Shown here in pieces: positions 413 to 18,134 of a DNA stretch of 18,250 nucleotides. Source of the DNA: a virus (lineage: Duplodnaviria > Heunggongvirae > Uroviricota > Caudoviricetes). Numbering within the stretch: the first letter of the stretch is position 1; each line of letters begins with the position of its first letter. A program made the position numbers and the translations under genes. Under the pieces are notes generated by a model. The model made no database searches, had not been told where the DNA came from, and was given only the letters and a program-made list of their open reading frames with translations. The stretch is taken from the IMG/VR virus record IMGVR_UViG_2690315922_000010; one strand, given 5' to 3'.

Positions 413-739
413 TTACTCCTTCGAGCTACCAAATTTGTTGCCGATTACTCTCATTGCAGCACCACGAATAGCATCGACGCCGATCAGCCCAACGCCGCCA
501 CCAATGGCAACAGAAAGTGATTTAGGCCATCCGACATACTCAAGCGCGGATGCAAAGGTCAGCGTCAGAGCGCCACAGAGCAAAATCTCGAGCGTTTTTC
601 TCTTCCAGCCACCACCACCGCCAAAATAGGCAATGCGCAAGCCAGCCATAACGATCGACATAATCACTGCGCCCAGCGGTGTGTCTCCACGCCACCAGCT
701 CTGGACCAACTCCAGCCAAGTATTTGGGTTATGAGGCAT
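413..739 (-). CDS. S: Holin (lambda S-like class I), 108 aa
   Basis: Sits immediately upstream of R on the same strand with a 3-nt gap. Small protein with hydrophobic segments, a glycine-rich turn (YFGGGGGW) and a charged C-terminus. GAGGTGA ribosome-binding site upstream, though about 13 nt from the ATG. Confidence 0.7.
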   Translation of the reverse strand: MPHNPNTWLELVQSWWRGDTPLGAVIMSIVMAGLRIAYFGGGGGWKRKTLEILLCGALTLTFASALEYVGWPKSLSVAIGGGVGLIGVDAIRGAAMRVIGNKFGSSKE

Positions 740-887: not shown

Positions 888-915
888 GACAAAACCCGCT
901 CGACGGCGGGTTTAA
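888..915 (-). terminator. Candidate intrinsic terminator upstream of the lysis genes (tR-prime-like position)
   Basis: 8-bp stem AAACCCGC/GCGGGTTT (892-899 and 906-913) with 6-nt loop. Read on the minus strand it is followed by a U-rich tail (UUUUGUCGUUUCU). About 150 bp upstream of S. Confidence 0.35.
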
Positions 916-1030
916 GCTGTGTGGCGAAGTAACCACTCTTAACACAATACAATACTTTTTGCGTACGCGTTAGTGTTTTGATAGAATTTTCAGCCACATA
1001 AAAATCCATTCTTATAATTGGGGATATATA

Positions 1031-2206
1031 ATGGATATAACTTGTTTAGAATGTGGCAATGTTCTTGACGACCCAACTGTAGCTTGCGATAAATGCGGTG
1101 CCACGCCTCATGTTGTAGTGCTGGGCAAACAATCGTACTTTCCTATTGGTGCTGTAACAGCAAATCTTGAAAAAAATGATTCAAGAGCATTTGATTATCG
1201 ATTAGGTGAAGTTTGGGATCTAAAAAATGAAGTCACATCTGAATTCATAACCAGAATTGAGAAAAAATTTAGCCGAAAAAACAAATTTCATAACTTCCTA
1301 GACTCAGATCACAACCCTTCATCCATTCCTACGATCCTAAAAAAATACATTAATAAAAATAATGAATTCATTGATTTATCTAGAGCTATAATAGAGAGGC
1401 TTAAACATAATGCTAATAACGAATCGAGAGTTGCCCAACTTCAGGGGGGGAGCGTTGTTTTCATCCACTATAAGTCTACCGAACCAGAGGATTTGGGGAA
1501 ACTTCTAATCGTAATGGTTGATAAACAAAGCGCCTATGACTTTGATTCGGATAAGTTGACCCCAACAAGATTAAATCCAATTAATACCGATGCCTTACGG
1601 CAGGCTGCGATGTTCGATTTAACTTTATTCGAAGCCAGTTATCCAGAAAACAAGGGTGACTCATATGTACATTTCTTGCAAGGTAAATCTAAAAGCGATT
1701 TTTTCAAAGACTCATTAGGTTGCCGACATGATTCGGACAATAAAAGAAGCATTCAGCAATTATTCAGTGCTATAGATATTTTTGCTAGTAAAAACTCACT
1801 CGGTCGTGTACTGCGTGATACTATTGACAATGAAGTTAAATCCTTACTGGAAAAAAAATCAAAAGATAAACACGGAAATAAGTCCGTTAAGATAGAGGAT
1901 ATTTCAAAAATAATTGACTCATGCCTGACTGATTCACACAAATGTAAGGGAACGTTTGTCGATTTTGTTAATCTTAATGGTTTCCAGATTGACCCTCAAT
2001 TTGAACCAACTCCTAAAGCAGCTGAAAGCGCGCTTACAATTGAAGTGGCAGATAACGACAATAATTTTAAGTTGAAAATAATGCGTGGAGCTATTGGAGA
2101 CGAAAAGTCAAATAAGCCTGTAATTCTCACTGACAACAAATGCGAAATTGTGATAAAATTGAGTCAGGCAAATTATGATGAACTCAAAAGATATAGAGAC
2201 AGCTAA
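1031..2206 (+). CDS. Zinc-ribbon protein with NdpA/YejK-like (nucleoid-associated, PF04245-like) domain, 391 aa; cassette gene 1
   Basis: ATG at 1031 with GGGGA 6 nt upstream. N-terminal CxxC-X10-CxxC (C5, C8, C19, C22). Central block GGSVVFIHYK...LLIVMVDK...YVHFLQGKSKSDFFKDSLG resembles the NdpA/YejK signature as I remember it. Strongly AT-rich codon usage compared with flanking phage genes. Function is inferred, not confirmed. Confidence 0.8.
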   Translation: MDITCLECGNVLDDPTVACDKCGATPHVVVLGKQSYFPIGAVTANLEKNDSRAFDYRLGEVWDLKNEVTSEFITRIEKKFSRKNKFHNFLDSDHNPSSIPTILKKYINKNNEFIDLSRAIIERLKHNANNESRVAQLQGGSVVFIHYKSTEPEDLGKLLIVMVDKQSAYDFDSDKLTPTRLNPINTDALRQAAMFDLTLFEASYPENKGDSYVHFLQGKSKSDFFKDSLGCRHDSDNKRSIQQLFSAIDIFASKNSLGRVLRDTIDNEVKSLLEKKSKDKHGNKSVKIEDISKIIDSCLTDSHKCKGTFVDFVNLNGFQIDPQFEPTPKAAESALTIEVADNDNNFKLKIMRGAIGDEKSNKPVILTDNKCEIVIKLSQANYDELKRYRDS

Positions 2207-2208
2207 TA

Positions 2209-3423
2209 ATGACAATTGCTGATGACTTATCAAGATTAGCGCAGATTATTAACGGAGCCTCAAGCAGAGTTGAGGGCTACTACACTGTCATAAGTCTTGA
2301 AGAAAGCATTGTTATTGTAAATAGTTCTGAAATAATTAGACTGTTACAATCTATAGGTTATAAAAAGGCAACAACCTGCATCGAAAATAATGAAATTTGG
2401 CTAGATCGCCAAGCTTCATCTTGGGATGACGCTATAATTTATGAGAATGTTGAGTCTTTTTGGTCTAGAGTAAACACCCAAAACGCTCTTCCGAAAAATT
2501 ATATCATCGGAACGCCGTTAATACTCCCTACTTCTAAGAATGAAAGCATCGAAAAAATCCATATTTTCTTTATGTGGAAAGATATCCTTTCATTAATTGC
2601 TGATCATCATAACAGTGACTGCTCTGTCTTATTTTTCACCAATGAAGACAAAAGTTATACAGTCGAACTCACGCATTTTTTACAATATAGCGAGATTAAT
2701 CGCTTATCGAACTCGTCTCTTAAATATGAAATTATAAAGGAGCTTCTCGACACAATAAAAATCAATGATTTACACAAAAGCGAGCGCAAGCTCGTTATAC
2801 GCTCAGCCATAAACGAAGTATTTAAAGCAAATGGTACGTTCAATTTCTTTGACTTGCTTAACTCTACTGAACTCGTCAGGAAAAAATATGATGAACTATA
2901 TGAGATTTACACAAAGAGGTTTTCTGTAAATAAAATTCTTAACGAACTCGATGAGAAAAATCTTGAGTTCACGAGTAAAATTAACGAATTCATATCATCT
3001 AATCAGACAAAAGCATTGACTATTCCCGGTGCATTAATAGCAGCTGGTGGCTTAGTGAAGGCTAATGAAACAACCGAAGCAATATTGATTATCGCAGGAC
3101 TTTGGATGATAAAAAAAGTCAATTACATTTCTATTGAGATATTCAATGAAACATTCGACAACTTACGTTCTCGAGTGGAGTCCGCTTTCGATAAGTATTT
3201 AAAGTTTGAAGAAAATAAAGAAATCAAAGATAATGCAGATAGTATTAAGAGTAGCATTACAGGTTTGATTGATAAAGCTAAAAAAAGGATGAGAACTGTT
3301 AAATATCTCGCATCAGCCATGTTTTATGGAGGCCTTATTTACGTTGGATATAAACAGTTCCCAGTCTTTTTTGAAAAATCGGCAGTAAATCTATTTTATT
3401 TTTTATGCCATACTATAAGCTAA
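2209..3423 (+). CDS. Membrane-anchored protein of unknown function, 404 aa; cassette gene 2
   Basis: ATG 2 nt after the stop of gene 1, suggesting translational coupling. About 265 aa soluble N-terminal domain, then a hydrophobic helical hairpin (about aa 268-303, ALTIPGALIAAGGLV...AILIIAGLWMI) and a third hydrophobic segment (about aa 366-380, YLASAMFYGGLIYVGY). AT-rich like gene 1. No recognisable catalytic motif. Confidence 0.75.
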   Translation: MTIADDLSRLAQIINGASSRVEGYYTVISLEESIVIVNSSEIIRLLQSIGYKKATTCIENNEIWLDRQASSWDDAIIYENVESFWSRVNTQNALPKNYIIGTPLILPTSKNESIEKIHIFFMWKDILSLIADHHNSDCSVLFFTNEDKSYTVELTHFLQYSEINRLSNSSLKYEIIKELLDTIKINDLHKSERKLVIRSAINEVFKANGTFNFFDLLNSTELVRKKYDELYEIYTKRFSVNKILNELDEKNLEFTSKINEFISSNQTKALTIPGALIAAGGLVKANETTEAILIIAGLWMIKKVNYISIEIFNETFDNLRSRVESAFDKYLKFEENKEIKDNADSIKSSITGLIDKAKKRMRTVKYLASAMFYGGLIYVGYKQFPVFFEKSAVNLFYFLCHTIS

Positions 3424-3759
3424 CATTGCTAAACAGCCGTCAACAAACCCCATTGCAGTTTGCAGTTCCTTCCTAATTGTGCCATCAGAGCATTTTCTCT
3501 TCTTCGCAATAGTGCGTAATGAGATACCGATAACAAAGTGGGCGATGATGAGCTCATATTCCTCTGGTTTATACCTTCTCAACCGAGCCACACAACTGTC
3601 TATCATGATGCCTTCATCATCATCGCACTGGAGACGTGACTTTTTACCGTGTGGTAGAAGCCCCTTGAAACCAGCCGCTATCGGCTGCCAGTCGACACCA
3701 CTATTTTCTGCTGCAGCCCAAGCCCCCCAACGATCTAAAACTTCGTACATATCACGCAT
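3403..3759 (-). CDS. Q: Late-gene antiterminator Q (phage 21/QuuD-like family), 118 aa
   Basis: MRDMYEVLDRWGAWAAAENSG...AAGFKGLL...RLQCDDDEG...CSDGTIRKELQ matches the small Q family of E. coli lambdoid prophages as I recall it. Lies between the replication genes and the lysis genes. ATG overlaps the stop of the upstream gene (TGATG). Confidence 0.8.
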   Translation of the reverse strand: MRDMYEVLDRWGAWAAAENSGVDWQPIAAGFKGLLPHGKKSRLQCDDDEGIMIDSCVARLRRYKPEEYELIIAHFVIGISLRTIAKKRKCSDGTIRKELQTAMGFVDGCLAMLAYSMA

Positions 3760-4001
3760 CAGCGCAGTACCTCCTGCACCAGTTTTTCAAACTTTCCAAC
3801 TTTGGTTTCCAGCTCTGCCACACAATCAACGAGCTCATCCACCGCTTTTTGTGCGCGATGTTTCGCCTGCATCAGTTCCCTGAGCGCTGGCACCATATCC
3901 CGACGAATGGCATCTTTTGTTACACCTGTTTTTTCCAGTTGTTCCGCCTGTCGCAACATTTCCTGTGCCTGTTTACGTAGTTGTTCAGGGGTAAAAGTCA
4001 T
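3759..4001 (-). CDS. Hypothetical small coiled-coil protein (about 80 aa), nin-region position
   Basis: The ORF track starts at a TTG (4016); I prefer the ATG at 4001 (MTFTPEQLRK...). Charged helical sequence. Its stop overlaps the Q start, and its 5' end abuts the DnaB stop. No clear Shine-Dalgarno. Confidence 0.5.
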   Translation of the reverse strand: MTFTPEQLRKQAQEMLRQAEQLEKTGVTKDAIRRDMVPALRELMQAKHRAQKAVDELVDCVAELETKVGKFEKLVQEVLR

Positions 4002-4012
4002 TGTCTGGTTGT

Positions 4013-5404
4013 TCAAAAGAAACGCTCCATCTTACTGCTGTCAGTTCGTTTGTTGCTGTATCTGCGCGGCTGGGGCTGCTGCATTGGGGTGGAAAGAATC
4101 TGTGCGCTTTCCTGATCCACAGGCAGAAAATGTCCGTTATAAAAACGCCGGTAAATCGTCCCCAGAGAACCGTTACGTTGTTTCGTGATATTGATTTCTG
4201 CTATGCCCCGGGCCTGCGTATCCGGGTTGTACACTTCATCCCTGTAAAGCATCAGAATGATGTCTGCATCCGCCTCTATTTCTCCGGAATTTTTCAGGTC
4301 TGAGTTCATGGGGCGTTTATTGGGTCTGGACTCCACACCACGGGAGAGCTGGCTCAGCGCAATTAAGGGAAAACCACCGGATTTTGCCAGGCCTTTAAGC
4401 CCCTTTGAGATTTCACCCACGGCAAGGTCATGACGCCCCGTGGTTCGGGTTTTTATCAGCCCGAGATAATCAACCACCACCAGCGCCGTTTCCGGATATT
4501 TAATCAGGTGGTGTTTCGTTGTTGCGCATATCTCGTCAATGGTCAGGTTCGCCTGGTCCACCATCCAGATATTGCGCCCGGTCATCCGCCCCACCCCTTG
4601 TGAGAAACGCGCCCAGTCTTCGTCTTCAAAGTGAGCGACAGATTTCAGACGTGATACCGGCATTCCTCCAGCCGCAGATACCATGCGCTCACCAATCTGG
4701 ATGTTCGCCATTTCCATTGTGAACAGAAGAACACCATGCCCCTGCTCAGTCACCTTGTCGATGATATCCAGCGCCAGTTCAGTTTTGCCCATTGACGGAC
4801 GAGCCGCAATAAATACCAGGTCGCCGGGCTCCATGCCGCCTGTTTTTGCGTCCAGTTCATCAATACCGGTCATCAACGTCCTGGATTTCTCCAGCCCCTG
4901 ATTCCGGCATTCAACACGCTCAACCACTTCCGGAAGCACATCATCAATATGTACCGGCTGAATAACGCCCTTTTCCGTCGACAATGAGGCCATCATGTTC
5001 TGCGCATCCTTCAGGGCATCTTCAGCTGCTTCACAGGTATGCGCATCACGTAATTTCTGCAACGCCTCATTCAGCGTCTTTTCTGCATCACGCAGTGCGG
5101 CATTGCGACGCAACGCTGCAACATAGTGCTCCAGTGAAGACTTCACCCAGGTTTTACGCCCGGTATCAGTAATCACCGGAGCAAGTTCCGGCATCTCATT
5201 GCACAGCAGCACAGGATCAATCACACCTGAAACACGAGCCTGTCTGCAGATGCCTGTGTAGATATCCCGATACGCTCGTACAGAAAAAACGTCCGCAGGT
5301 AGTGTGGCCAGAATATCCATCACTTCAGGATCTGCCCCACGCAGAAAGAACGCGCCAATGACAGCGCCTTCCAGGTCATCGTTACGCCAGACTGGTGTTG
5401 TCAT
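4013..5404 (-). CDS. DnaB-family replicative DNA helicase, about 463 aa
   Basis: Walker A AARPSMGKTELAL and other DnaB C-terminal RecA-like motifs (LVFIAARPSMGKT, VVVDYLGLIK, LSQLSRGVESRPNKRP). Start set at ATG 5404, which overlaps the stop of the upstream loader gene (ATGA), rather than the track's GTG at 5512. Confidence 0.9.
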   Translation of the reverse strand: MTTPVWRNDDLEGAVIGAFFLRGADPEVMDILATLPADVFSVRAYRDIYTGICRQARVSGVIDPVLLCNEMPELAPVITDTGRKTWVKSSLEHYVAALRRNAALRDAEKTLNEALQKLRDAHTCEAAEDALKDAQNMMASLSTEKGVIQPVHIDDVLPEVVERVECRNQGLEKSRTLMTGIDELDAKTGGMEPGDLVFIAARPSMGKTELALDIIDKVTEQGHGVLLFTMEMANIQIGERMVSAAGGMPVSRLKSVAHFEDEDWARFSQGVGRMTGRNIWMVDQANLTIDEICATTKHHLIKYPETALVVVDYLGLIKTRTTGRHDLAVGEISKGLKGLAKSGGFPLIALSQLSRGVESRPNKRPMNSDLKNSGEIEADADIILMLYRDEVYNPDTQARGIAEINITKQRNGSLGTIYRRFYNGHFLPVDQESAQILSTPMQQPQPRRYSNKRTDSSKMERFF

Positions 5405-6279
5405 GCAGCCACACCTCTGATACGAGAACGGTAGCTGGGCCAGTTGAACGACAACCAGTTGCGCCCCCCGTCTGTGATCCTGTCGGCAATGCGGGGGCTG
5501 ATGAACGCCCACAACTCTTCCGGTGAAAGGTTGCTGATCAGGATGGTGGGCAGGATACTTTCGTACCGGGCATTGATAATTTCCTGCAAAATAGCCATTT
5601 CAGCCGCGCTGCCAAACTGAACACCAACTTCGTCGATGATCAGCAAATCCATTGACGCATAATGCTCAATAACTTCATCCGCTGTTTTTTCGCTGTCATT
5701 CCGCCAGCAGTTTTTCACAGCACGGGTAAGGCGCATCACGTCGGTGATCTCCACGCTGGCCAGATGATTACGGATGATGTGTTTTGCCATAGCCACAGCC
5801 AGATGATTTTTCCCGGTACCGCAACTGCCAGTCATAACAAGACTGGTGCCGTTCTCCAGCATATCTGGCCAGTTCTCCGCATAGCGGCGACAGGCTGCAA
5901 GATTTCTGGCTGCGTCAGGATTAACCTCCAGATAGTTATCAAACTCACAGTCCCGAAAACGCAGGGCAATTCCGGCGTTATCAGTCAGCTCTTCCGCCTT
6001 GAGGGACGACAGCTCCATGGTCAAATCGTTGGCCTCAGCGATCAAGCAGTCAGGGCAGCATGAAATTTTTTCTCTGTCCTCGCCATTGCGATCGCTCCAC
6101 ACCAGTATATGCGTATGGTATTTACCGTGTTTTTCGCAATACCCGCGACCTTCACGCATCAGGCAGGAACGATAAGGCCATGGCTTTTCGCCCTTCTGAG
6201 CAAATGCAATCTCTGCCCGTAACTCATCCATTCGCGCCTGTAGTCTTGTTTGTTGTTCACGCAGGTTAAACGTCATCAT
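5401..6279 (-). CDS. DnaC/IstB-like AAA+ helicase loader, about 292 aa
   Basis: Walker A GSCGTGKNHLAVAMA and Walker B LLIIDEVG. N-terminal Cys/His-rich segment (CEKHGKYHTH...CCPDC). ATG at 6279 preceded by GAGGTGA; the track start at 6288 is a GTG. Confidence 0.85.
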   Translation of the reverse strand: MMTFNLREQQTRLQARMDELRAEIAFAQKGEKPWPYRSCLMREGRGYCEKHGKYHTHILVWSDRNGEDREKISCCPDCLIAEANDLTMELSSLKAEELTDNAGIALRFRDCEFDNYLEVNPDAARNLAACRRYAENWPDMLENGTSLVMTGSCGTGKNHLAVAMAKHIIRNHLASVEITDVMRLTRAVKNCWRNDSEKTADEVIEHYASMDLLIIDEVGVQFGSAAEMAILQEIINARYESILPTILISNLSPEELWAFISPRIADRITDGGRNWLSFNWPSYRSRIRGVAA

Positions 6280-6289
6280 CGCTGTCACC

Positions 6290-7198
6290 TCAGAATGTCA
6301 ATTTGTCACTGGATTTACCGAATTTGTCAGACATGGCACCAAGGCCAGACAGGACATCGACCTGTCGCTGTCGCCCACCTCCGGGAGCGGCTGGCTGTTG
6401 CCAGAAATCTTCGAAGTGACGATCGGGGCCAAAGAACGTCGCAGCCTGCTTCACGAACTGTGTGCCGGTATTTCCTGTAGCACGTACCCAGGCGGCATAA
6501 CGTCTCACACCATCAAGCATGGTCTCCGGTTTTATTCCCTCCCTGAGACGGGCTTTCCAGGCTTTGAAGGCTGCTGACTTGGAATTGCCACCAGCACGTT
6601 TGGGATATTCCTGCCAGGCCTGTTCAAATTCCGGTGAATATTCCTGTCGGGCAGAACGCGCTGGTGCAGACGCGTCAGCGGATGCGCCAATAGTGTTTTT
6701 ACTCTCTGTAGTATTCTCTGAAGTAATCTCTGTTGTATTCTCTGTAAGATCGAAATTGGTTTTCCCTTCTCCGCGGCGAGGGGTTTCCCGTGTCCGCGGT
6801 GAAGGCTTGCCCTCCTCCGCGAAATTGGGTTTTACAGTTTCCCGAAAACGGGTTTCCCCATTTCGGGAAAACTGATTGTTTTCATTGATAATTTCATTAA
6901 GGCGCTCACAATCTATACGGTAGAACATTTTGTGCTCAAGACGCTTGTTGGTTTCAACCAAAATGCCTCTGGACACAAGATGCTTACGCGCTACAGCCTG
7001 TTGTTCAAATGTAAGTCCGGTTTCGTGTTGTATCTCTTCACGCGTTTTATGTACGCCTTCCGCTGCATGTGCTTTATCCTGCCAGTAAAAAATCTGACCA
7101 AAGAAAATAACAGCGTGCGGACTTCCCATGTATTTAACGAGCCCAGGGTAATAAGCAACCGGATGCCCAAAATCGAGCAGAAGATCAGACGGACGCAT
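6290..7198 (-). CDS. Replication initiator / replisome organiser (lambda O analogue), about 302 aa
   Basis: Immediately upstream of the loader and helicase genes. ATG at 7198 preceded by GGGAGGTGG. The mid-region encodes a repetitive peptide (TENTTEITSENTTESKNT) over tandem DNA iterons, as in lambda O/ori. Family assignment is by position and architecture. Confidence 0.75.
   Translation of the reverse strand: MRPSDLLLDFGHPVAYYPGLVKYMGSPHAVIFFGQIFYWQDKAHAAEGVHKTREEIQHETGLTFEQQAVARKHLVSRGILVETNKRLEHKMFYRIDCERLNEIINENNQFSRNGETRFRETVKPNFAEEGKPSPRTRETPRRGEGKTNFDLTENTTEITSENTTESKNTIGASADASAPARSARQEYSPEFEQAWQEYPKRAGGNSKSAAFKAWKARLREGIKPETMLDGVRRYAAWVRATGNTGTQFVKQAATFFGPDRHFEDFWQQPAAPGGGRQRQVDVLSGLGAMSDKFGKSSDKLTF
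6703..6870. repeat. Origin-like iteron array inside the initiator gene
   Basis: Four tandem 12-bp repeats starting at 6703, 6715, 6727 and 6739 (TCTCTGTAGTAT, TCTCTGAAGTAA, TCTCTGTTGTAT, TCTCTGTAAGAT). Downstream are GGKTTTCCC repeats (about 6768, 6781, 6850) and an inverted repeat TTCCCGAAAA...TTTCGGGAAA (about 6839-6872). Confidence 0.6.
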
Positions 7199-7418
7199 AG
7201 CCACCTCCCAGACGCTTAAACATTTTCCCGGACTGAAAAGCCACCAGCGGATAACTCAGGGTATGAGTACGTCCCTGAACCTGGCAGACAACCTTCTGGC
7301 TTTCTGTATTGACCAGGCAAACCCGCAGAACGTGGCCGTTGCTGGTGGTGAACCACTGCCCCACACGGGGGCAACGGTTGTATCGGTGATACAAGGAATT
7401 AACGACGCGGCGAATCAT
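7185..7418 (-). CDS. Hypothetical protein, 77 aa
   Basis: ATG at 7418 preceded by GGGAGGT and overlapping the stop of the upstream gene (ATGA). Basic and Cys-containing. The track start at 7433 gives a slightly longer form. Confidence 0.55.
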   Translation of the reverse strand: MIRRVVNSLYHRYNRCPRVGQWFTTSNGHVLRVCLVNTESQKVVCQVQGRTHTLSYPLVAFQSGKMFKRLGGGYASV

Positions 7419-8077
7419 GGGCGCACCTCCCATTGATTACGGCGGAAAGCGGTGTGACTGAGACTGGTTTCAGTTTCATGGAATGCTTCAATGCAGCTCT
7501 CGTAGTACCGCATTGTGCGCAGACTTAACCCAAGCTGAAGCATCATCAGGCCATCAAGGGTGATGTAATAACCACGCAGGGAGTCACCATAGATGTGATA
7601 AGTACCCGGTATGAAATTGCGGGTAAAAAATTCGCGCGAGCAGTTCAGATACTCGATTTTGTCGACGATGTTCTGGTGCATGCGCTTGAAATGGCAGGCA
7701 ACATGCAGGGAGAAAATAACGGCCTTGCCGTTGACGACTTCGATTTTCAGGTATGGGGAAGTTGGGACTGTAGCCATGATGGCAGCCTCCGATAACAGTG
7801 AATTACCTTCACCACCGGAAACGCCAATTTCGCTGGTGGTGAACTGAACGGGGTTGGCGTAACCGGCGTTATCGGAAACCGGCGCACCTTTCGGTGCCCC
7901 CGTCCAGCCCACCATAATTTGGGTGTGCGCAGACGCAGACGATAAAAAAGACGCTGGCGCGTCATATATCGCCGATAACATTTCCAGGACGCCAATCCCG
8001 GCACCCGCTTTATAAGGTGCTTGGACAGTGTACCGTCCCGAAATTGCAGAATCAATATTTAGGCTTGAAACATTCAT
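7415..8077 (-). CDS. Hypothetical protein, 220 aa, no recognisable domain
   Basis: Longest ORF in the interval and translationally coupled to the downstream 77-aa gene. Weak ribosome-binding site at its own start, so the start is uncertain. Confidence 0.5.
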   Translation of the reverse strand: MNVSSLNIDSAISGRYTVQAPYKAGAGIGVLEMLSAIYDAPASFLSSASAHTQIMVGWTGAPKGAPVSDNAGYANPVQFTTSEIGVSGGEGNSLLSEAAIMATVPTSPYLKIEVVNGKAVIFSLHVACHFKRMHQNIVDKIEYLNCSREFFTRNFIPGTYHIYGDSLRGYYITLDGLMMLQLGLSLRTMRYYESCIEAFHETETSLSHTAFRRNQWEVRP

Positions 8078-9707: not shown

Positions 9708-10400
9708 ATGACATTTTCAGAACGACTTGATTTAGCTATGCGCAACGCAAAATTTACGCAAGGTAGGCTGGCCAAAGAAGTGGGTATGGCTCAGTCCAGT
9801 GTTAATCAACTACTTAACAAAGCCAACGGTTCCAGAAAAACAGTCGAAATAGCAAAAGTTTTGGGCGTTAACCCGGAATGGCTCGCATCGGGTGTTGGTC
9901 CAATGGAAATCGTGACCTCTGCAGACTCACACCAAATACGTAACATTTCTGAAGATTGGGTTACTGATTCGTATGTCGTGGATGTTTTAGACATCAGATA
10001 TAGTTGCGGACCTGGTAGTTATAACTCTGATTTTCCTGACATTGTCAGATCTATAGCGATAGAACCAGGATACGCATCAAGAGTTTTTGGCGGCAGACCA
10101 GCATCAGCAATCAAAGCAATAAACGCCCACGGCGACAGTATGAAAGGCACAATAGACCCTGAAGACTTGGTATTTGTAGATGTATCAGTTCGCACATTTA
10201 ATGGTGATGGTATATACGCCTTTACATACTCTGGAACATCGCACATCAAAAGACTTCAAAAAATCAAAGATACTCTAACGGTGATATCTGACAACCCAGC
10301 TTACAAGGATTGGGCTATCGAACCGGAAGACTTCGAACAACTTCACATTGACGGAAAAGTAATTGTCAGTTGGCCTATGACACTACACCGTTTTGCATAA
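9708..10400 (+). CDS. cI: CI-like prophage repressor (XRE HTH N-domain + S24 LexA-like peptidase C-domain), 230 aa
   Basis: N-terminal HTH (LAKEVGMAQSSVNQLLN). C-terminal autoproteolysis domain with the GDSM motif (Ser nucleophile) and a downstream Lys. AGGGGAGGA ribosome-binding site. Divergent from cro-like. Confidence 0.9.
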   Translation: MTFSERLDLAMRNAKFTQGRLAKEVGMAQSSVNQLLNKANGSRKTVEIAKVLGVNPEWLASGVGPMEIVTSADSHQIRNISEDWVTDSYVVDVLDIRYSCGPGSYNSDFPDIVRSIAIEPGYASRVFGGRPASAIKAINAHGDSMKGTIDPEDLVFVDVSVRTFNGDGIYAFTYSGTSHIKRLQKIKDTLTVISDNPAYKDWAIEPEDFEQLHIDGKVIVSWPMTLHRFA

Positions 10401-10418
10401 GCAAAAATCATTTAACCC

Positions 10419-10444
10419 GCCCACTCTTAAGTGGGCTTTTTTTT
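10419..10444 (+). terminator. Intrinsic terminator after cI
   Basis: GCCCACT (10419-10425), loop CTTAA, GTGGGC (10431-10436), then TTTTTTTT (10437-10444). Confidence 0.6.
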
Positions 10445-10467
10445 GGAAAAAAAAATCGATAAACCGA

Positions 10468-10496
10468 TTGACAGGCGAAATCGGTAAACCTATTAT
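10468..10496 (+). promoter_or_regulatory. pL-like sigma70 promoter for the early-left operon
   Basis: TTGACA (10468-10473), 17-nt spacer, TATTAT (10491-10496). Flanked by direct repeats ATCGATAAACC (10455-10465) and ATCGGTAAACC (10480-10490), which resemble the operator half-sites. Confidence 0.55.
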
Positions 10497-10545
10497 CTTG
10501 ACATAGGTATCGAACTCACCAAAGCAATTATAGAGGATGAGAAAA

Positions 10546-11043
10546 ATGTCATCGTATATGGGATTACCAACAAATCAGCACGATGCTCTTGAGAATATTC
10601 AGCTCTTAGTAGGGGCTGGTGCACTACTGTATAGCAGCAATAACCCTGAGTTAATTGAACTTGCCAGCTCCATCCTGGCTGTAACTCAAAAATATAGCCT
10701 CACCGCGTCACGTTTATGCAAACAAAATTTAGCTATTAATTCCCAGAATCGGATTCGCACCCAACGCGAAGCCTGCGGCTTAACAACCGCCGAACTCGCC
10801 AGGCTGCTCGAACTCGATGAAGAAATCATCATTCAGTGGGAGAGTGGAGAGTATGAACCAACCATCAGTATGCTTATCCCACTGGCTAATGTTCTTGGCT
10901 GCGATCCGATGTGGCTGTTAACTGGCGAGGTTACTCCTCCGGAGCAACCAAAAAGTGAGGAGCAGCAACACCATGACGCATCTCAACAAGTTTGCTCCTT
11001 ATCTCGCGAAGCTCTTCTACGGAAGAACCAATACCAATGGTGA
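10546..11043 (+). CDS. XRE-family HTH protein with about 70-aa N-terminal extension, about 165 aa
   Basis: ATG at 10546 preceded by AGAGGA; the track start is at 10537. HTH segment TQREACGLTTAELARLLELDEEIIIQWESGEYEPTISMLIPLANVLGCDPMWLL. First gene downstream of the pL-like promoter. The C-terminal tail may be shorter than the ORF. Confidence 0.6.
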   Translation: MSSYMGLPTNQHDALENIQLLVGAGALLYSSNNPELIELASSILAVTQKYSLTASRLCKQNLAINSQNRIRTQREACGLTTAELARLLELDEEIIIQWESGEYEPTISMLIPLANVLGCDPMWLLTGEVTPPEQPKSEEQQHHDASQQVCSLSREALLRKNQYQW

Positions 11044-11171
11044 CATAATCGCCGCTTCGCCCCTCAAGGTACATGCGAACATTTTTATCAATCATTGCGG
11101 AAACAGTCTCAATATGAAAACACTTCTGAGACTCGCTATATAGCAGAACATATAAGTCAGCTGAGGAAGCC

Positions 11172-11537
11172 ATGAAAAAGTTCGAAAACATAACTGTTCT
11201 CCATGTTGATGACTTTGATTATACAAACCCGAAACTTCTCCCGAAGGTTGTAAAGGCAATAGATGTTGCCGATATAGTGATTAGAGGAAAGAGAATTGTC
11301 AAAAACAGGCTCGCATGCACTTCAGGAGCAATGACAGAAACAACCTCACAACAAGATGATTATGAAGGCATTTGTCTGGAGCCTGATTCATTTGCGGTAA
11401 ATGTTTATCATTTATTGCATGCAACACAGGTATTACATATGTCAAGTAATCACGAAACAAAAACACTTGGCAGCGAAATTCTGAATTTTGCATGTGAATA
11501 TGCAAAAGCTGCTGCCGAAAAAGAATTAGCGCAATAA
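11172..11537 (+). CDS. Hypothetical protein, 121 aa
   Basis: ATG preceded by GAGGAA. AT-rich. No recognisable domain. Confidence 0.6.
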   Translation: MKKFENITVLHVDDFDYTNPKLLPKVVKAIDVADIVIRGKRIVKNRLACTSGAMTETTSQQDDYEGICLEPDSFAVNVYHLLHATQVLHMSSNHETKTLGSEILNFACEYAKAAAEKELAQ

Positions 11538-11615
11538 CAATAAATATTCCCTGAATGTTTATTACGGTTTTATCGCCGGAGATTGTTGCAACCTTTATTC
11601 GCAGGAGATTATGTT

Positions 11616-11729
11616 ATGACTTTCCTGAAACATAAGGCATCGTATAAAACTGCCTGCCTCATTGCACAACATGGAGATTCTTATCTTCATATAGCCAACC
11701 TGTATTTGCGCAAAGCATATGGGAGATAA
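11616..11729 (+). CDS. Possible small protein, 37 aa
   Basis: ATG preceded by AGGAGA at ideal spacing. Stop lies within the ribosome-binding site of the next gene. Not in the ORF track because it is below the length cut-off. Confidence 0.3.
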   Translation: MTFLKHKASYKTACLIAQHGDSYLHIANLYLRKAYGR

Positions 11730-11733
11730 GTCA

Positions 11734-11922
11734 ATGGAAGAAAAACAACAAAACATAACACATAAAAAAGTAAGAGTGTTGCTAACCATTGAAAATGGTG
11801 AAGTAATTTACTCAAAACATCTGTTGGATAGTGAATTCGTTGGCTGCATGGATACATTTCTGTGGATGGCAAAAAGAGCTGGCTACACGATTATTCCACC
11901 AGCAAAGGAGCAAACATTATGA
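11734..11922 (+). CDS. Hypothetical protein, about 62 aa
   Basis: ATG at 11734 preceded by GGGAGA; the track start is at 11719. Stop overlaps the next gene's start (ATGA). Confidence 0.5.
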   Translation: MEEKQQNITHKKVRVLLTIENGEVIYSKHLLDSEFVGCMDTFLWMAKRAGYTIIPPAKEQTL

Positions 11923-12500
11923 ATCATTCAGAGTTCCGACCAGAAGTTACTCCACATGGCATAAAAATTGGCAATACAACCATTGATTATGTTGAAGCTG
12001 TGCGGCGTCTTAATGATGGTGAATACGATTATCCAAATTCACGCGGTTTAAGAATCCTTCAGTGCCTTGCCGAAGCTGATGATGCCGGATTGCTGGGGAA
12101 ATTTTCCATCGATATGAAGGTTGCACAATGGCGCTGGCTGTATGTAACGATATTTATAAACGAAGAGGAATATAAGAACGGCACCATTGATATCTCGAAC
12201 GAAAACGGAACTACAGGTCGCGCAGTTATTTATAAAGGGAAATATGGTTGTATGGGTATCTACCCGGGACCAATTCGCATTGCCCTGCAAAACCATGTCG
12301 AATGGGGATTTATTGAAAAATATGGTGAAGATGAAGGTATGGGGCGAGTTCTGTTTCTCTATCAAAAAATGCTCATCGCAGATCCTGATAATGGTTTCAT
12401 TGTTTCTGCTATGGGACGCGAAGGGCTTGAACTCCTTCTGGATGAAATGATTAACGACCTGAATACTCATGGTATGCCAGAAGCGCCAGTGACACATTAA
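11919..12500 (+). CDS. Hypothetical protein, about 193 aa
   Basis: ATG at 11919 preceded by AAGGAG and coupled to the upstream gene. The track's longer N-terminus is rejected. No recognisable domain. Confidence 0.65.
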   Translation: MNHSEFRPEVTPHGIKIGNTTIDYVEAVRRLNDGEYDYPNSRGLRILQCLAEADDAGLLGKFSIDMKVAQWRWLYVTIFINEEEYKNGTIDISNENGTTGRAVIYKGKYGCMGIYPGPIRIALQNHVEWGFIEKYGEDEGMGRVLFLYQKMLIADPDNGFIVSAMGREGLELLLDEMINDLNTHGMPEAPVTH

Positions 12501-12546
12501 ATATTAAGAAGAAAATAATTCTTCCAGTTTTTTACTAACCGTTTAT

Positions 12547-12654
12547 ATGAAAAGCAACCGTGAATTAAACAGAGTAAAACTGATTTTAATCCTTGCCACA
12601 GTGGTGACACTAACTGAAATTATTATTCTCTTTATTGCGCTGTCAGTCGGTTAA
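12547..12654 (+). CDS. Possible small hydrophobic peptide, 35 aa (single transmembrane helix)
   Basis: MKSNRELNRVKLILILATVVTLTEIIILFIALSVG. No clear Shine-Dalgarno. Below the track cut-off. Confidence 0.3.
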   Translation: MKSNRELNRVKLILILATVVTLTEIIILFIALSVG

Positions 12655-12677
12655 AAATATCGGGATACCACAGACCA

Positions 12678-12866
12678 ATGAGACTGTATTTCACAATAGT
12701 AATTTTACTGGCAATTATCGCATGCATTTACGGATTACTCGTTCCGTTCCTTATATCCATGAAGGATACGATAGCAGTTATTTCTGGCTTTGCACTGGCG
12801 TTTCTGACCCCGCCCTGCATTTATGCCATTTACAAGGGTCTTTCTTTCACTAAGGATAAAAGATGA
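12678..12866 (+). CDS. Small membrane protein, 62 aa (two predicted transmembrane helices)
   Basis: Two hydrophobic helices. Stop overlaps the start of the SPFH gene (ATGA), suggesting co-translation with it. Confidence 0.5.
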   Translation: MRLYFTIVILLAIIACIYGLLVPFLISMKDTIAVISGFALAFLTPPCIYAIYKGLSFTKDKR

Positions 12867-13690
12867 AAAAAATTATTTTTGCTTTAGCCATTGTTCTGCC
12901 GACTATTGGCCTCGTCGGTTGCGATCGCGTTGAACCAGGTAATGTTGGCATCAAGGTAAATAAACTGGGCGACGACAAAGGCGTCGGTGAGGTGGTCGGT
13001 GTTGGTCGCTACTGGACAGGCTGGAACACTGAAGTTTATATCTTCCCGACCTTTAAGCAGATGAAGACCTACGATGATCCATTCAGTTTCCAGATGAGCG
13101 ATGGAACAACCATTGGTTACCACATCGGAGTAGCCTACAAAGTTGATCCATCCAAAGTTACCACGGTGTTTCAAACCTACCGCAAAGGTGTGGATGACAT
13201 TACCGACACCGACCTGCGCCAGAAGATAGCAGATGCACTAAATCGGCTGGCCAGCAAAATGACCACCGACAAATTTATCGACGGCGGCAAGTCTGAGCTG
13301 CTGGATGCAGCTCTAAAAGATATTCAGGCAGAAATGACGCCCATCGGTATTCAGGTAATGAGCCTGTCTTATGTAGGTAAACCGGAGTACCCGCCAACCG
13401 TTATCGACAGCATTAACGCCAAAGTCACGGCAAACCAGAAAACCCTGCAACGCGAGCAGGAAGTAAAACAGCGCGAAGCGGAAGCCAACATGTTGCGTGC
13501 GGAGGCTGCCGGACAGGCAGATGCAATTCGCACAAAAGCTCAGGCCGAAGCCGATGCTATTCGTTTACGCGGTGAAGCTCTGCGCCAGAACCCCGGTGTT
13601 ATGGAGCTGGAAGCCATCAATAAATGGAACGGCACACTGCCGCAATACATGACCAGCGGTGCCAATACACCATTTATCCAGGTTAAATAA
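12863..13690 (+). CDS. SPFH/Band-7 (stomatin/HflK/C-like) lipoprotein, 275 aa
   Basis: Signal peptide with lipobox LVGC. Band-7 core followed by an Ala/Glu/Gln-rich coiled coil (QREQEVKQREAEANMLRAEAAGQADAIRTKAQAEADAIRLRGEA). AAGGA ribosome-binding site. Confidence 0.85.
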   Translation: MKKIIFALAIVLPTIGLVGCDRVEPGNVGIKVNKLGDDKGVGEVVGVGRYWTGWNTEVYIFPTFKQMKTYDDPFSFQMSDGTTIGYHIGVAYKVDPSKVTTVFQTYRKGVDDITDTDLRQKIADALNRLASKMTTDKFIDGGKSELLDAALKDIQAEMTPIGIQVMSLSYVGKPEYPPTVIDSINAKVTANQKTLQREQEVKQREAEANMLRAEAAGQADAIRTKAQAEADAIRLRGEALRQNPGVMELEAINKWNGTLPQYMTSGANTPFIQVK

Positions 13691-14813: not shown

Positions 14814-16127
14814 ATGGATAAAGTCAAATATCCAACAGGCGTCGAAAACCACGGCGGCACATTACGCATCTGGTTTAATTTTAAAGGTAAACGTGTCAGG
14901 GAAAATCTTGGTGTCCCTGACACTGCCAAGAACAGGAAGATCGCCGGGGAACTACGGACATCGGTATGTTTTGCCATCCGCACAGGAAGCTTTGATTATG
15001 CTGCACAGTTCCCTGACTCCCCTAACCTTCAGGCTTTTGGGGTAAGTAAAAAAGAAATTACGGTGAAAGAACTTGAAGAAAAATGGCTGGATCTGAAACG
15101 AATGGAAATCTCTGCAAATGCATTCAATCGCTATGAATCCGTTGCAAGAACGATGGTTCCGAAAATTGGAGGCAGCAGACTGGTGTCATCGGTAACTAAA
15201 GAGGAATTGCTGTATATCAGGAAAGATTTGCTGACCGGGTATCAGAATCCAACGAAAAACAAAGCAGCAGCAAAAGGACGGAGCGTCGTTACTGTAAATT
15301 ATTACATGACGACAATCGCTGGAATGTTTCAGTTTGCTGCAGATCACGGTTACTTAGAAGCAAATCCCTTCCAGGGAATTAAGCCTCTTAAAAGAGCCAG
15401 GGCAGAGCCAGATCCGCTAACTCGTGACGAATTTATTCGCCTGATAGATGCTTGCCGACATCAGCAGACGAAAAACCTGTGGTCATTGGCTGTGTACACA
15501 GGAATGCGTCACGGTGAACTGGTCTCCCTGGCCTGGGAAGATATCGATCTGAAAGCAGGAACTATTACTATCAGGCGCAATTATACGAAACTCGGTGAGT
15601 TCACTCTACCTAAAACTGAAGCAAGTACAAACAGGGTTGTGCATCTTATCCAGCCCGCTATCAGTGTCCTGAAAAATCAGGCTGAAATGACAAGACTGGG
15701 TAAGCAGCACCACATCAAGGTTCAACTACGTGAATATGGGCGTTCAGTGAATCATGAATGTACTTTCGTATTTAACCCCCAGGTGGTTAGAAAAAGCAAA
15801 CAGGTCGGTTTTATCTACAAGGTAGATTCTATTGGCGACTCATGGGAAACAGCCATTAAGCGTGCGGGCATCAGGCACCGGAAAGCATACCAGTCACGAC
15901 ACACTTATGCGTGCTGGTCGTTATCTGCCGGAGCAAATCCAAGCTTCATTGCCAGCCAGATGGGCCATGCAAGTGCCCAGATGGTGTTCAATGTATACGG
16001 AGCATGGATGACTGACAGTAATGCAGAACAGATCGCAATGCTGAATCAGAAGCTGGCAGATTATGTCCCAATGATGCCCCATAGTCACCAAAATGGCACA
16101 AAAGGCTTATTAAAATCAGTAAGTTAA
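14814..16127 (+). CDS. int: Tyrosine integrase (lambda Int-like, IntR/IntE-type N-terminal arm-binding domain), 437 aa
   Basis: GGAGG ribosome-binding site. N-terminus PTGVENHGGTLRIWFNFKGKRVRE...GSFDYAAQFPDSP is typical of E. coli lambdoid integrases. C-terminal catalytic region has conserved Arg, His-x-x-Arg (SRHTYA) and Tyr. Last gene before the host junction. Confidence 0.9.
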   Translation: MDKVKYPTGVENHGGTLRIWFNFKGKRVRENLGVPDTAKNRKIAGELRTSVCFAIRTGSFDYAAQFPDSPNLQAFGVSKKEITVKELEEKWLDLKRMEISANAFNRYESVARTMVPKIGGSRLVSSVTKEELLYIRKDLLTGYQNPTKNKAAAKGRSVVTVNYYMTTIAGMFQFAADHGYLEANPFQGIKPLKRARAEPDPLTRDEFIRLIDACRHQQTKNLWSLAVYTGMRHGELVSLAWEDIDLKAGTITIRRNYTKLGEFTLPKTEASTNRVVHLIQPAISVLKNQAEMTRLGKQHHIKVQLREYGRSVNHECTFVFNPQVVRKSKQVGFIYKVDSIGDSWETAIKRAGIRHRKAYQSRHTYACWSLSAGANPSFIASQMGHASAQMVFNVYGAWMTDSNAEQIAMLNQKLADYVPMMPHSHQNGTKGLLKSVS

Positions 16128-16610: not shown

Positions 16611-18134
16611 ATGAAACGTGCAATCAGTTACATCCGATTCAGTTCTGAGAAGCAATCCCGAGGTGATTCACTACGCCGACAATCGAAGTTGGTCACTGAC
16701 TGGCTTAAAGCTCGTCCTGAGTATCATCTAGATGAATCTCTTACCTTCCGTGATTTGGGGAAAAGTGCTTTTAGCGGTAAGCACTTGAAAGGTGGCTTAG
16801 GCGACTTCTTAACCGCTATTGAGAAAGGGCTTGTAAGAGCTGGTGATACGCTCTTGATAGAGTCTCTTGACCGTCTGTCACGGCAAGATGTAGACCGAGC
16901 AAGTGAACTACTCAGAAACATCCTTCGCTCTGGTGTCGATGTGGTCACATTATCCGATAATGAACACTACACAAAGGAATCTCTTAAAGACCCGTTAGCC
17001 TTGATTAAGTCAATCCTGATTATGCAACGAGCGCATGAGGAAAGTTTGAGGAAGTCTGAGCGTATACAGGCTGCATGGGATGCAAAGAAAGAAGCCGCTA
17101 AAGCTGGTATCAAGATTTCTAAGCGTTGCCCTGCATGGCTTAAGCTTAATAATGACCGTAAAAGTTTCTCTGTAATCCCTGAGAAGGTAGCGACGGTAAA
17201 GCGATGCTTCCAGCTACGGTTAGAGGGTAAGTCTATCTTGGAAATTGTCAGAACTCTTAATAGTGAGGGACATCAGACGCTTAACCAGTACAAAGCGGGT
17301 AAATTTAGTCAGACTTCTGTGCAAGACCTTTTGAAGAATCGCTCTGTAATTGGTTATTTCACCCCCAAAGGCTGTGAAGAAATTTCAAACTATTACCCCT
17401 CTATCATCCCTGAGACTGATTTCTACAAAGTCCAGCAACTATCATATCCTCGTTACGGTAGAAAACCTGCTTCAGATAAACCATTGAGTGTGAATCTTTT
17501 CAAGGGTGTTATCCGTTGTTCTGAATGTGGTCATGCTCTGATTATCACAGGCTTTAGCGATACAAGGAACGGGATATATCGCTGCCCTCTTCGTAATGAA
17601 AACCGTTGCAGTGCTAAGGGTCTGTCACGTAAGCAAACTGATGGAACATTACTTGCTTTGCTCTCTCGTCTTGACCGATTTGAGAATGGTACAACGAATG
17701 CCATTGATACACTGAAGCTACACCGTGAACACATTTCAAACAATATTGAGAAGCTGGTACAACTCTCACTTGAAGTCGAAGACCTGACCGCTATTACCAG
17801 CAAGTTAAAACAGTTAAAGGGGGAGTTATCACAGGTTGATGCTGATATTGAGAAGGAGGCACAACGCCTTAAATCTATTGACGTGGGTTGTTTGTCTGAT
17901 TGTGACTTGAGTACAAAGGCGGGAAGGATTGAAGCACAACTGATTATTCGTAGTGCTGTTAAAGAAGTTGTTTTAAACACTGCTAAACGTCGCTGTAGAG
18001 TAACTTTTCACAATGGCAAGGTGATTGACCTGTCGATAACAGAAAACCCCGCTCAGGACATTACAGAGGCTGAAAAGTCGCTTACTGAAATTGCTGAGAA
18101 GGGTCTGTTAGATGTTGACGCCTTCCAACTGTAG
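16611..18134 (+). CDS. Large serine recombinase (serine integrase), 507 aa
   Basis: N-terminal resolvase-type catalytic domain (AISYIRFSSEKQSRGDSLRRQ with Ser nucleophile, LIESLDRLSR). Recombinase domain, Cys-rich zinc-ribbon (CSECGH...YRCPLRNENRC) and C-terminal coiled coil. Confidence 0.9.
   Translation: MKRAISYIRFSSEKQSRGDSLRRQSKLVTDWLKARPEYHLDESLTFRDLGKSAFSGKHLKGGLGDFLTAIEKGLVRAGDTLLIESLDRLSRQDVDRASELLRNILRSGVDVVTLSDNEHYTKESLKDPLALIKSILIMQRAHEESLRKSERIQAAWDAKKEAAKAGIKISKRCPAWLKLNNDRKSFSVIPEKVATVKRCFQLRLEGKSILEIVRTLNSEGHQTLNQYKAGKFSQTSVQDLLKNRSVIGYFTPKGCEEISNYYPSIIPETDFYKVQQLSYPRYGRKPASDKPLSVNLFKGVIRCSECGHALIITGFSDTRNGIYRCPLRNENRCSAKGLSRKQTDGTLLALLSRLDRFENGTTNAIDTLKLHREHISNNIEKLVQLSLEVEDLTAITSKLKQLKGELSQVDADIEKEAQRLKSIDVGCLSDCDLSTKAGRIEAQLIIRSAVKEVVLNTAKRRCRVTFHNGKVIDLSITENPAQDITEAEKSLTEIAEKGLLDVDAFQL

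Follow-up and report, generated by a model that had tools for sequence, protein, structure and literature searches.

What does an AT-rich gene pair do between the antiterminator gene Q and the lysis genes of a lambdoid prophage? The question is raised by IMG/VR virus record IMGVR_UViG_2690315922_000010 (Caudoviricetes), an 18,250-nucleotide (nt) stretch of DNA that we call the window and whose positions are counted from its first letter. The two genes of the pair, here DS-1A and DS-1B, had been taken in an earlier note, made from the letters alone, for an undescribed defence or abortive-infection module that pairs a nucleic-acid-binding protein with a membrane protein. Judged by sequence, the cassette is the anti-phage system DS-1, carried as prophage cargo under what reads as a promoter of its own. 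DS-1 is already published, experimentally validated and represented in NCBI annotation models.

Identity with DS-1 and its published activity

DS-1 was reported by DeWeirdt, Mahoney and Laub in their work on DefensePredictor (bioRxiv January 2025, Science April 2026; PMC13092281). Their Table S6 lists the system (working id D390) as a 2,393-bp transcription unit comprising WP_000355468.1 (391 aa, YejK) and WP_000150292.1 (404 aa) (PMC13092281). The window cassette has the same 2,393-bp length and the same gene order and spacing. Window DS-1A is identical to the tested WP_000355468.1 at 390 of 391 residues, with one conservative substitution (R123K), and DS-1B matches WP_000150292.1 at all 399 printed residues. 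The tested copy comes from E. coli contig NZ_RRVY01000002.1; that residue aside, the prophage mosaic that hosts it is the only difference from the window. The exact sequence of window DS-1A, including the R at position 123, stands under accession WP_059276177.1, from Escherichia albertii.

Both proteins also pass the cut-offs of dedicated NCBIfam equivalogs. DS-1A scores 452.3 bits (E 1.2e-135, residues 10-377) against NF053868.1 (DS1_1_antiphage, 'nucleoid-associated anti-phage protein'; cut-off 330), and DS-1B scores 375.2 bits (E 2.8e-112) against NF053869.1 (DS1_2_antiphage, 'anti-phage protein'; cut-off 315). Newer RefSeq annotation gives the same WP accessions these anti-phage names. The view that the module was undescribed and matched no named system must thus be abandoned. 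PADLOC v2.0.0 (2023) returned no match for either protein even at E<1. This blank is due to the age of the library, which has no DS-1 model; it explains why the pair had seemed to match no named system, and it is not evidence against a role in defence.

The cassette also occurs outside this particular prophage. No complete E. coli genome contains more than 65% of the 18-kb window; the cassette alone is 100% identical in E. coli TUM9868, and the full cassette is present in 106 of 5,426 complete E. coli genomes. A megablast search of INPHARED phages recovered only the junction of about 80 bp and not the cassette.

The defence function that the earlier note had proposed is borne out by plaque assays on a virtually identical construct. 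E. coli MG1655 carrying DS-1 and its predicted native promoter on a low-copy plasmid was exposed to 24 phages, and the study marks the outcome as replicated (PMC13092281). Activity in Table S7 of that study is given as the negative logarithm of the efficiency of plating (-log EOP) together with plaque size, and it refers to a near-identical construct rather than to this exact allele. Protection was strongest against Bas1 (7.6, plaques not smaller), followed by Bas26 (2.7, smaller plaques), Bas3 and T3 (1.7 each, smaller plaques), T5 (1.0, plaques not smaller) and T7 (0.9, smaller plaques); SECphi27 plated at about 0 with smaller plaques, and the table has no DS-1 phenotype row for T4 (PMC13092281 Table S7). 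Bas01 belongs to the Drexlerviridae (T1-like) and Bas26 is T5-like. Bas3 is of the same family as Bas1, and the two differ in sensitivity to DS-1 by about 10^6-fold.

Conserved pairing and the two proteins

In every lineage that we examined, a DS-1B homologue lies directly 3' of a 362-392-aa NA37 gene on the same strand, and seven lineages have kept the pair, with identities as low as about 26-30%. Because the genes are co-directional, spaced by 2 nt in the window and conserved across these lineages, DS-1A and DS-1B probably work together. Every DS-1-like cassette examined resides on a mobile element. In Yersinia enterocolitica (DS-1B 38% identical) it again occupies the Q-holin slot, on the opposite strand, whereas in Serratia marcescens (33%; locus L006, 4804-8334) it adjoins a BstA C-terminal-domain protein and recombinases. 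The Pseudoteredinibacter pair (30%; L004, 4845-12594) sits in an integrase island with AbiEii, DUF4145 and an AAA_21/AAA_15 ATPase, and that of Pseudoalteromonas (30%; upstream gene 35% identical to DS-1A) adjoins an integrase. More distant partners were aligned with hhalign in P. aeruginosa (L012/L013, 5001-7422; E 5e-56), next to Pf-like filamentous-phage genes (Zot, DUF2523), and in a metagenomic lineage (E 4e-44), next to a NERD gene. The P. aeruginosa pair consists of an NA37 protein of 386 aa and a partner of 425 aa. A profile search intended to widen the DS-1B family added almost nothing and missed the Pseudomonas partner that hhalign confirms. The co-occurrence check that the earlier note had suggested thus finds the homologues, of which both genes have many, always paired and on mobile DNA.

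A constant location on mobile elements is also what would be expected of a housekeeping or regulatory module of the element itself, in which a xenogeneic YejK paralogue would organise prophage DNA or keep it silent, and resistance to phages would be a by-product of expressing the pair from a plasmid. NA37 paralogues on mobile elements can be regulators: NdpA2, on the PAPI-1 integrative and conjugative element, is reported to control PAPI-1 transfer (PMC8565334). Nevertheless, we hold this explanation to be very improbable. A low-copy plasmid with the native promoter gave protection, and this finding was replicated; the neighbours in other lineages are defence genes (AbiEii, the AAA_21/AAA_15 ATPase, BstA and NERD); and the obligatory membrane partner would have no role in silencing.

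DS-1A is a clear member of the NA37 family (Pfam E 5.5e-24, 85.6 bits, cut-off 24.6), in agreement with the NdpA/YejK-like region recognised previously. The C4 zinc ribbon that had also been noticed is present at its N-terminus; Pfam zinc-ribbon matches remain below threshold (E 0.07-0.28), and the HHpred analysis of the DS-1 authors gave a NinF-type zinc ribbon at 86% probability (PMC13092281). The ribbon occurs in only 23 of 50 relatives in the family alignment (A2). Pseudomonas-type and other relatives have an acidic N-terminal tail in its place, probably disordered, and yet are still paired with a DS-1B homologue.

The closest reference point for the remainder of the protein is E. coli YejK (NdpA; PDB 9be2), to which DS-1A is about 20% identical. 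YejK R176 aligns to DS-1A K219 within a near-invariant G-K-S-K-S-D-F-F-K motif, at a position that holds K or R in 48 of 50 family members. The alignment to YejK also extends over the C-terminal dimerisation arm, which the model predicts as well. DS-1A differs from YejK in its added N-terminal zinc ribbon and in its context, a prophage Q-holin slot with a membrane partner as opposed to the rplY-yejK-yejL housekeeping locus. It was accordingly rejected as a housekeeping YejK/NdpA: it scores 82.1 bits against the YejK equivalog NF001557, for which the cut-off is 341.

DS-1B is the less familiar partner. It has no Pfam family, no solved relative in a sequence search of the PDB and no fold relative in Foldseek (best E 0.42), and a CorA/Mrs2/ZntB channel was considered and set aside on finding neither a CorA Pfam domain nor a significant fold match. 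The AlphaFold2 model (pLDDT 84.8) begins with an alpha/beta domain (residues 1-165) and passes through a helical region into very long helices. The alpha/beta domain has a net charge of -9 and an isoelectric point (pI) of 4.8 (family median charge -7), and residues 1-266 together a net charge of -9 and a pI of 5.2 (family median -8). Invariant columns are few in the N-terminal domain (W72, P95, D132 and H133). The family is instead very strongly conserved in a juxtamembrane core (residues 226-284), a helix that continues into the first hydrophobic segment and that also aligns in the Pseudomonas and metagenomic partners.

Family-averaged hydropathy places three conserved hydrophobic segments in the last third of the protein, at about residues 267-290, 279-308 and 363-386. 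In the model, the helices of the hairpin region span 271-283 and 288-331, and a basic stretch (residues 345-365, +7/-1 charge) precedes the third helix. These data fit the soluble domain with C-terminal transmembrane anchors that had been ascribed to the second gene, the soluble part being acidic and cytoplasmic. C-terminal tails in the family range from 6 to 134 aa. One homologue (P0058 from Pseudoteredinibacter isoporae, 527 aa) ends, after its third hydrophobic helix, in an extension annotated by its source as an SH3 domain, and others have long charged tails. Since the variable tails and the SH3 extension follow the third hydrophobic helix, there is a hint that the C-terminus of DS-1B is periplasmic.

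Mechanism weighed against type II PANGU

An architecture of this kind has been described independently. Li et al. (bioRxiv April 2026) define PANGU as operons of a YejK-like nucleoid-associated protein (NAP) and an effector; in type II PANGU the NAP, Pag2A, is accompanied by Pag2B, which has an acidic N-terminal 'DNA-mimicking' (DMK) domain and a C-terminal transmembrane region (10.64898/2026.04.06.716658). DS-1 is likewise a two-gene anti-phage operon of E. coli, in which the YejK-like NAP comes first and its partner combines an acidic N-terminal part with a C-terminal transmembrane region. In PANGU^Ecu, from uropathogenic E. coli, defence needs both genes, neither gene on its own is toxic, cultures arrest at high multiplicity of infection, Pag2A binds the N-domain of Pag2B at 19 nM, Pag2A-GFP leaves the nucleoid on T4 infection, and T4 denA mutants escape (10.64898/2026.04.06.716658).

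Because DS-1 has the same architecture, a mechanism like that of type II PANGU, in which a damage-released NAP activates a membrane effector and infection is aborted, is the best supported by this analogy, and we lean towards it with modest confidence. DS-1A would sit on host DNA as a YejK-like dimeric ring. Breakdown of the host chromosome by an infecting phage would release it, and freed DS-1A would bind the acidic cytoplasmic N-terminal part of DS-1B. The conserved helical and transmembrane module of DS-1B would then be switched on, damaging membrane function and stopping the growth of the infected cell, so that the phage would not multiply. The sensor and membrane effector with the logic of abortive infection, as foreseen in the earlier note, would agree with what is reported for the architecturally equivalent type II PANGU. 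Further features support this reading. The DS-1A family has the lysine or arginine at the YejK R176 equivalent and the dimerisation arm described above; DS-1B, with its acidic N-terminal part and three conserved hydrophobic helices, matches what is published on Pag2B; the two genes stay paired across lineages; and the phages that DS-1 restricts (T5, T5-like, T1-like Drexlerviridae and T3/T7) are known to degrade host DNA. T7 and T3 do so through gp3 and gp6. T1 and T5 are cited as host-genome degraders by Li et al. (10.64898/2026.04.06.716658).

Several points weigh against this reading. The DS-1 paper does not dissect the mechanism of DS-1 (PMC13092281); the abortive phenotype, NAP relocalisation and escape of nuclease mutants are reported for PANGU^Ecu and PANGU^Ff only (10.64898/2026.04.06.716658). 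DS-1 is likened to PANGU^Ecu by described architecture, and the preprint on PANGU^Ecu mentions neither a zinc ribbon nor a prophage location. The second DNA-binding patch of YejK (R276/R280/K284) aligns to P328/E332/T336 in window DS-1A and is not conserved. All named DS-1B relatives are Gammaproteobacteria, whereas Li et al. call type II PANGU 'inter-phylum'. The phage spectra conflict as well: PANGU^Ecu blocks T4 and not T1 or T5, while the DS-1 rows include T5, T5-like, T1-like and T3/T7 phages but not T4. The two studies expressed their systems differently, DS-1 from the native promoter and PANGU^Ecu from IPTG (isopropyl beta-D-1-thiogalactopyranoside)-induced, codon-optimised genes. Finally, a 10^7.6 drop on Bas1 against a drop of about 50-fold on Bas3, of the same family, is easier to reconcile with a specific trigger or inhibitor than with a general signal of damage.

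Other two-gene defences pair a membrane protein with a DNA-binding protein, among them Kiwa (KwaA/KwaB) and lambda RexAB. DS-1 belongs to neither, having no KwaB (DUF4868) with a multi-pass KwaA and no RexA-like (RdgC-like) sensor with a RexB-like membrane protein. The logic of Kiwa could nonetheless apply: DS-1B would act as an anchor or sensor at the point of phage DNA entry, and DS-1A would clamp the incoming linear phage DNA and block its replication or transcription, the cell not being killed. Rings of the YejK type can be loaded onto DNA, where they could form roadblocks, complete plaque loss on Bas1 is typical of direct immunity, and the gap between the two Drexlerviridae phages could reflect entry routes, Bas01 using LptD. 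We regard interception of this type as unlikely.

Less probable again is superinfection exclusion, in which DS-1B by itself would hinder particular phages at DNA injection or at a membrane step, and the role of DS-1A would be no more than to regulate or stabilise DS-1B. Prophage-encoded inner-membrane proteins commonly block injection, and the DS-1 spectrum is phage-specific. DefensePredictor, moreover, assigned higher log-odds to DS-1B (12.7) than to DS-1A (8.6) (PMC13092281). On the other side of the balance, the pair is strictly conserved in every lineage examined, both genes are required in PANGU^Ecu, and conservation in DS-1B peaks in a cytoplasmic, juxtamembrane part and not in a periplasmic one. 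Such exclusion is therefore improbable as the basis of DS-1, for which release of a NAP from a damaged nucleoid stays the reading we favour.

The cargo slot between Q and the holin gene

The features of the cassette and its borders are collected in Table 1. The ORF list and the junction between the genes (TAA-TA-ATG) bear out the co-directional pair as it was first read, and the position between Q on one side and a lambda-family holin on the other holds equally well. The 2-nt gap would allow translational coupling. GC content is 34.9% in 1031-3423 against 51.7% in 1-900 and 51.2% in 3424-8000, as the suspected AT-richness required. The claim that the cassette opposes every surrounding gene is correct locally, where Q, the DnaB-like, DnaC-like and O-like replication genes upstream of Q and the holin gene all lie on the - strand, but it fails further out, the window genes from about 9 kb onward being on the + strand. 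DS-1B and Q are convergent, and their 3' ends overlap by 21 nt (3403-3423). A promoter-like sequence, TTGATA-16-AAAAAT, is found at 978-1005 as a consensus match, and the GGGGA lies 7 nt 5' of the DS-1A ATG.

Table 1. Position, strand and supporting evidence of the DS-1 cassette, its parts and its borders in the window
Feature	Position	Strand	Evidence or description
Lambda-family holin, first late (lysis) gene	413..739	-	TIGR01594 122 bits (cut-off 55.05); phrog_126 E 1e-36
Conserved junction element of about 90 bp, with terminator-like hairpin 913..892	891..984	-	Homology to SfII, mEp460 and Stx1a phage, 87-96% identity
Cassette 5' region: promoter-like site and Shine-Dalgarno	985..1030	+	Consensus match; GGGGA
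DS-1A, 391 aa, ATG start	1031..2206	+	N-terminal C4 zinc ribbon fused to YejK/NdpA (NA37) nucleoid-associated-protein fold
Zinc-ribbon codons of DS-1A, residues 5-22	1043..1096	+	CxxC-x10-CxxC; motif read from translation
DS-1B, 404 aa, ATG start	2209..3423	+	Membrane protein: acidic cytoplasmic N-terminal part, conserved helical core, three hydrophobic helices
N-terminal alpha/beta domain of DS-1B, residues 1-165	2209..2703	+	Model; acidic, poorly conserved
Most conserved core of DS-1B, residues 226-284	2884..3060	+	KKYDELYEIYTKRFSVNKILNELDEK...SSxQTKALTIPGALIAxGxL; most invariant or near-invariant columns of alignment A1
Predicted transmembrane hairpin of DS-1B, residues about 268-309	3010..3135	+	Hydropathy peaks 2.02 and 1.85, 15-residue windows
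Third predicted transmembrane helix of DS-1B, residues about 364-383	3298..3357	+	Hydropathy peak 1.76
Q antiterminator	3403..3759	-	phrog_79, E 6e-50; RefSeq name 'antiterminator Q family protein'

Comparison with related phages that lack the cassette delimits the slot. Homology to these relatives stops at about 984 and sets in again near 3437, within the 3' end of Q, as judged from the Q of a Stx1a phage. The last 11 or so codons of Q move with the cargo and not with the rest of Q. With the window, the Stx1a phage shares its replication module and a Q of 89.5% identity, and it carries the junction element of Table 1 between stx1A and three cargo genes on the opposite strand. No other non-coding sequence between Q and the late genes is common to the window and the Stx1a phage, and a near-identical Q should need the same promoter-proximal site; we therefore infer that 891-984 is the late-promoter/qut/terminator module, containing pR', qut and tR'. 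The cargo would then probably lie between Q and the late promoter. A consensus scan found no convincing sigma-70 match on the - strand in 890-1030, and its yield of promoter-like matches (12, against 9.4 expected from shuffled sequence) was at the level of shuffled sequence, for which reason pR' is placed by comparative evidence.

The same Q-holin junction holds five different cargoes in related lambdoid phages (the window and loci L002, L003, L016 and L017). These are DS-1 in the window and TUM1226; SfII_50/49 in SfII, with a match of SfII_50 to the PADLOC candidate PDC-M53A (E 2e-32); in mEp460, a protein of 309 aa with no assigned function; in the Stx1a phage, three unknown genes (350, 130 and 220 aa); and in STEC313, a GIY-YIG nuclease. 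TUM1226 has the same Q-cassette-holin block in a different prophage backbone. The junction thus looks like a hotspot for defence or other cargo.

The slot also enters into a composite possibility that we consider less likely than not. DS-1 would be a family separate from PANGU^Ecu, a NAP and membrane system with another trigger and a DS-1B fold without a solved relative, and its slot, between Q and the late promoter, would serve as a dedicated defence-cargo hotspot whose transcription does not depend on the late operon. Such a separation would explain the restriction of T1-like, T5-like and T7-like phages but not T4, together with the gap of about 10^6 within one phage family.

Elsewhere in the window, a second low-GC stretch (0.38-0.40) lies at 10300-12900 between a cI-like repressor and the integrase, and may be a second cargo region. 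It encodes a helix-turn-helix protein (10537-11043) and two ORFs without a family (11172-11537 and 11862-12500), after which comes an SPFH/Band-7 protein (12863-13690). Behind the tyrosine integrase (14814-16127) lies a large serine recombinase (16611-18134). In STEC313, a related prophage, DUF72, yecN and cmoA take that place, so that the window prophage borders on another site or on a second mobile element.

Taken together, our findings add to a published system the conservation of its gene pair in seven lineages, an effector, DS-1B, without a solved structural relative, and the position of the cassette in a variable cargo slot. DS-1 (Science 2026) and type II PANGU (bioRxiv 2026) present the same architecture, described independently and without cross-citation in searchable text. 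Indeed, the text of the PANGU preprint mentions neither DefensePredictor nor DS-1, and the two versions of the DS-1 paper were all that a literature search on DS-1 and DefensePredictor brought up. Because one junction holds at least five cargoes, the Q-holin slot is a practical place to seek further defence genes.

The remaining value of the locus lies in this slot of many cargoes, in the effector without a structural relative and in the link between DS-1 and type II PANGU. If the two are truly one family, DS-1 would inherit a sensing mechanism, the release of a NAP from the damaged nucleoid, and the conflicting phage spectra would become an informative puzzle about expression level or phage counter-defence.

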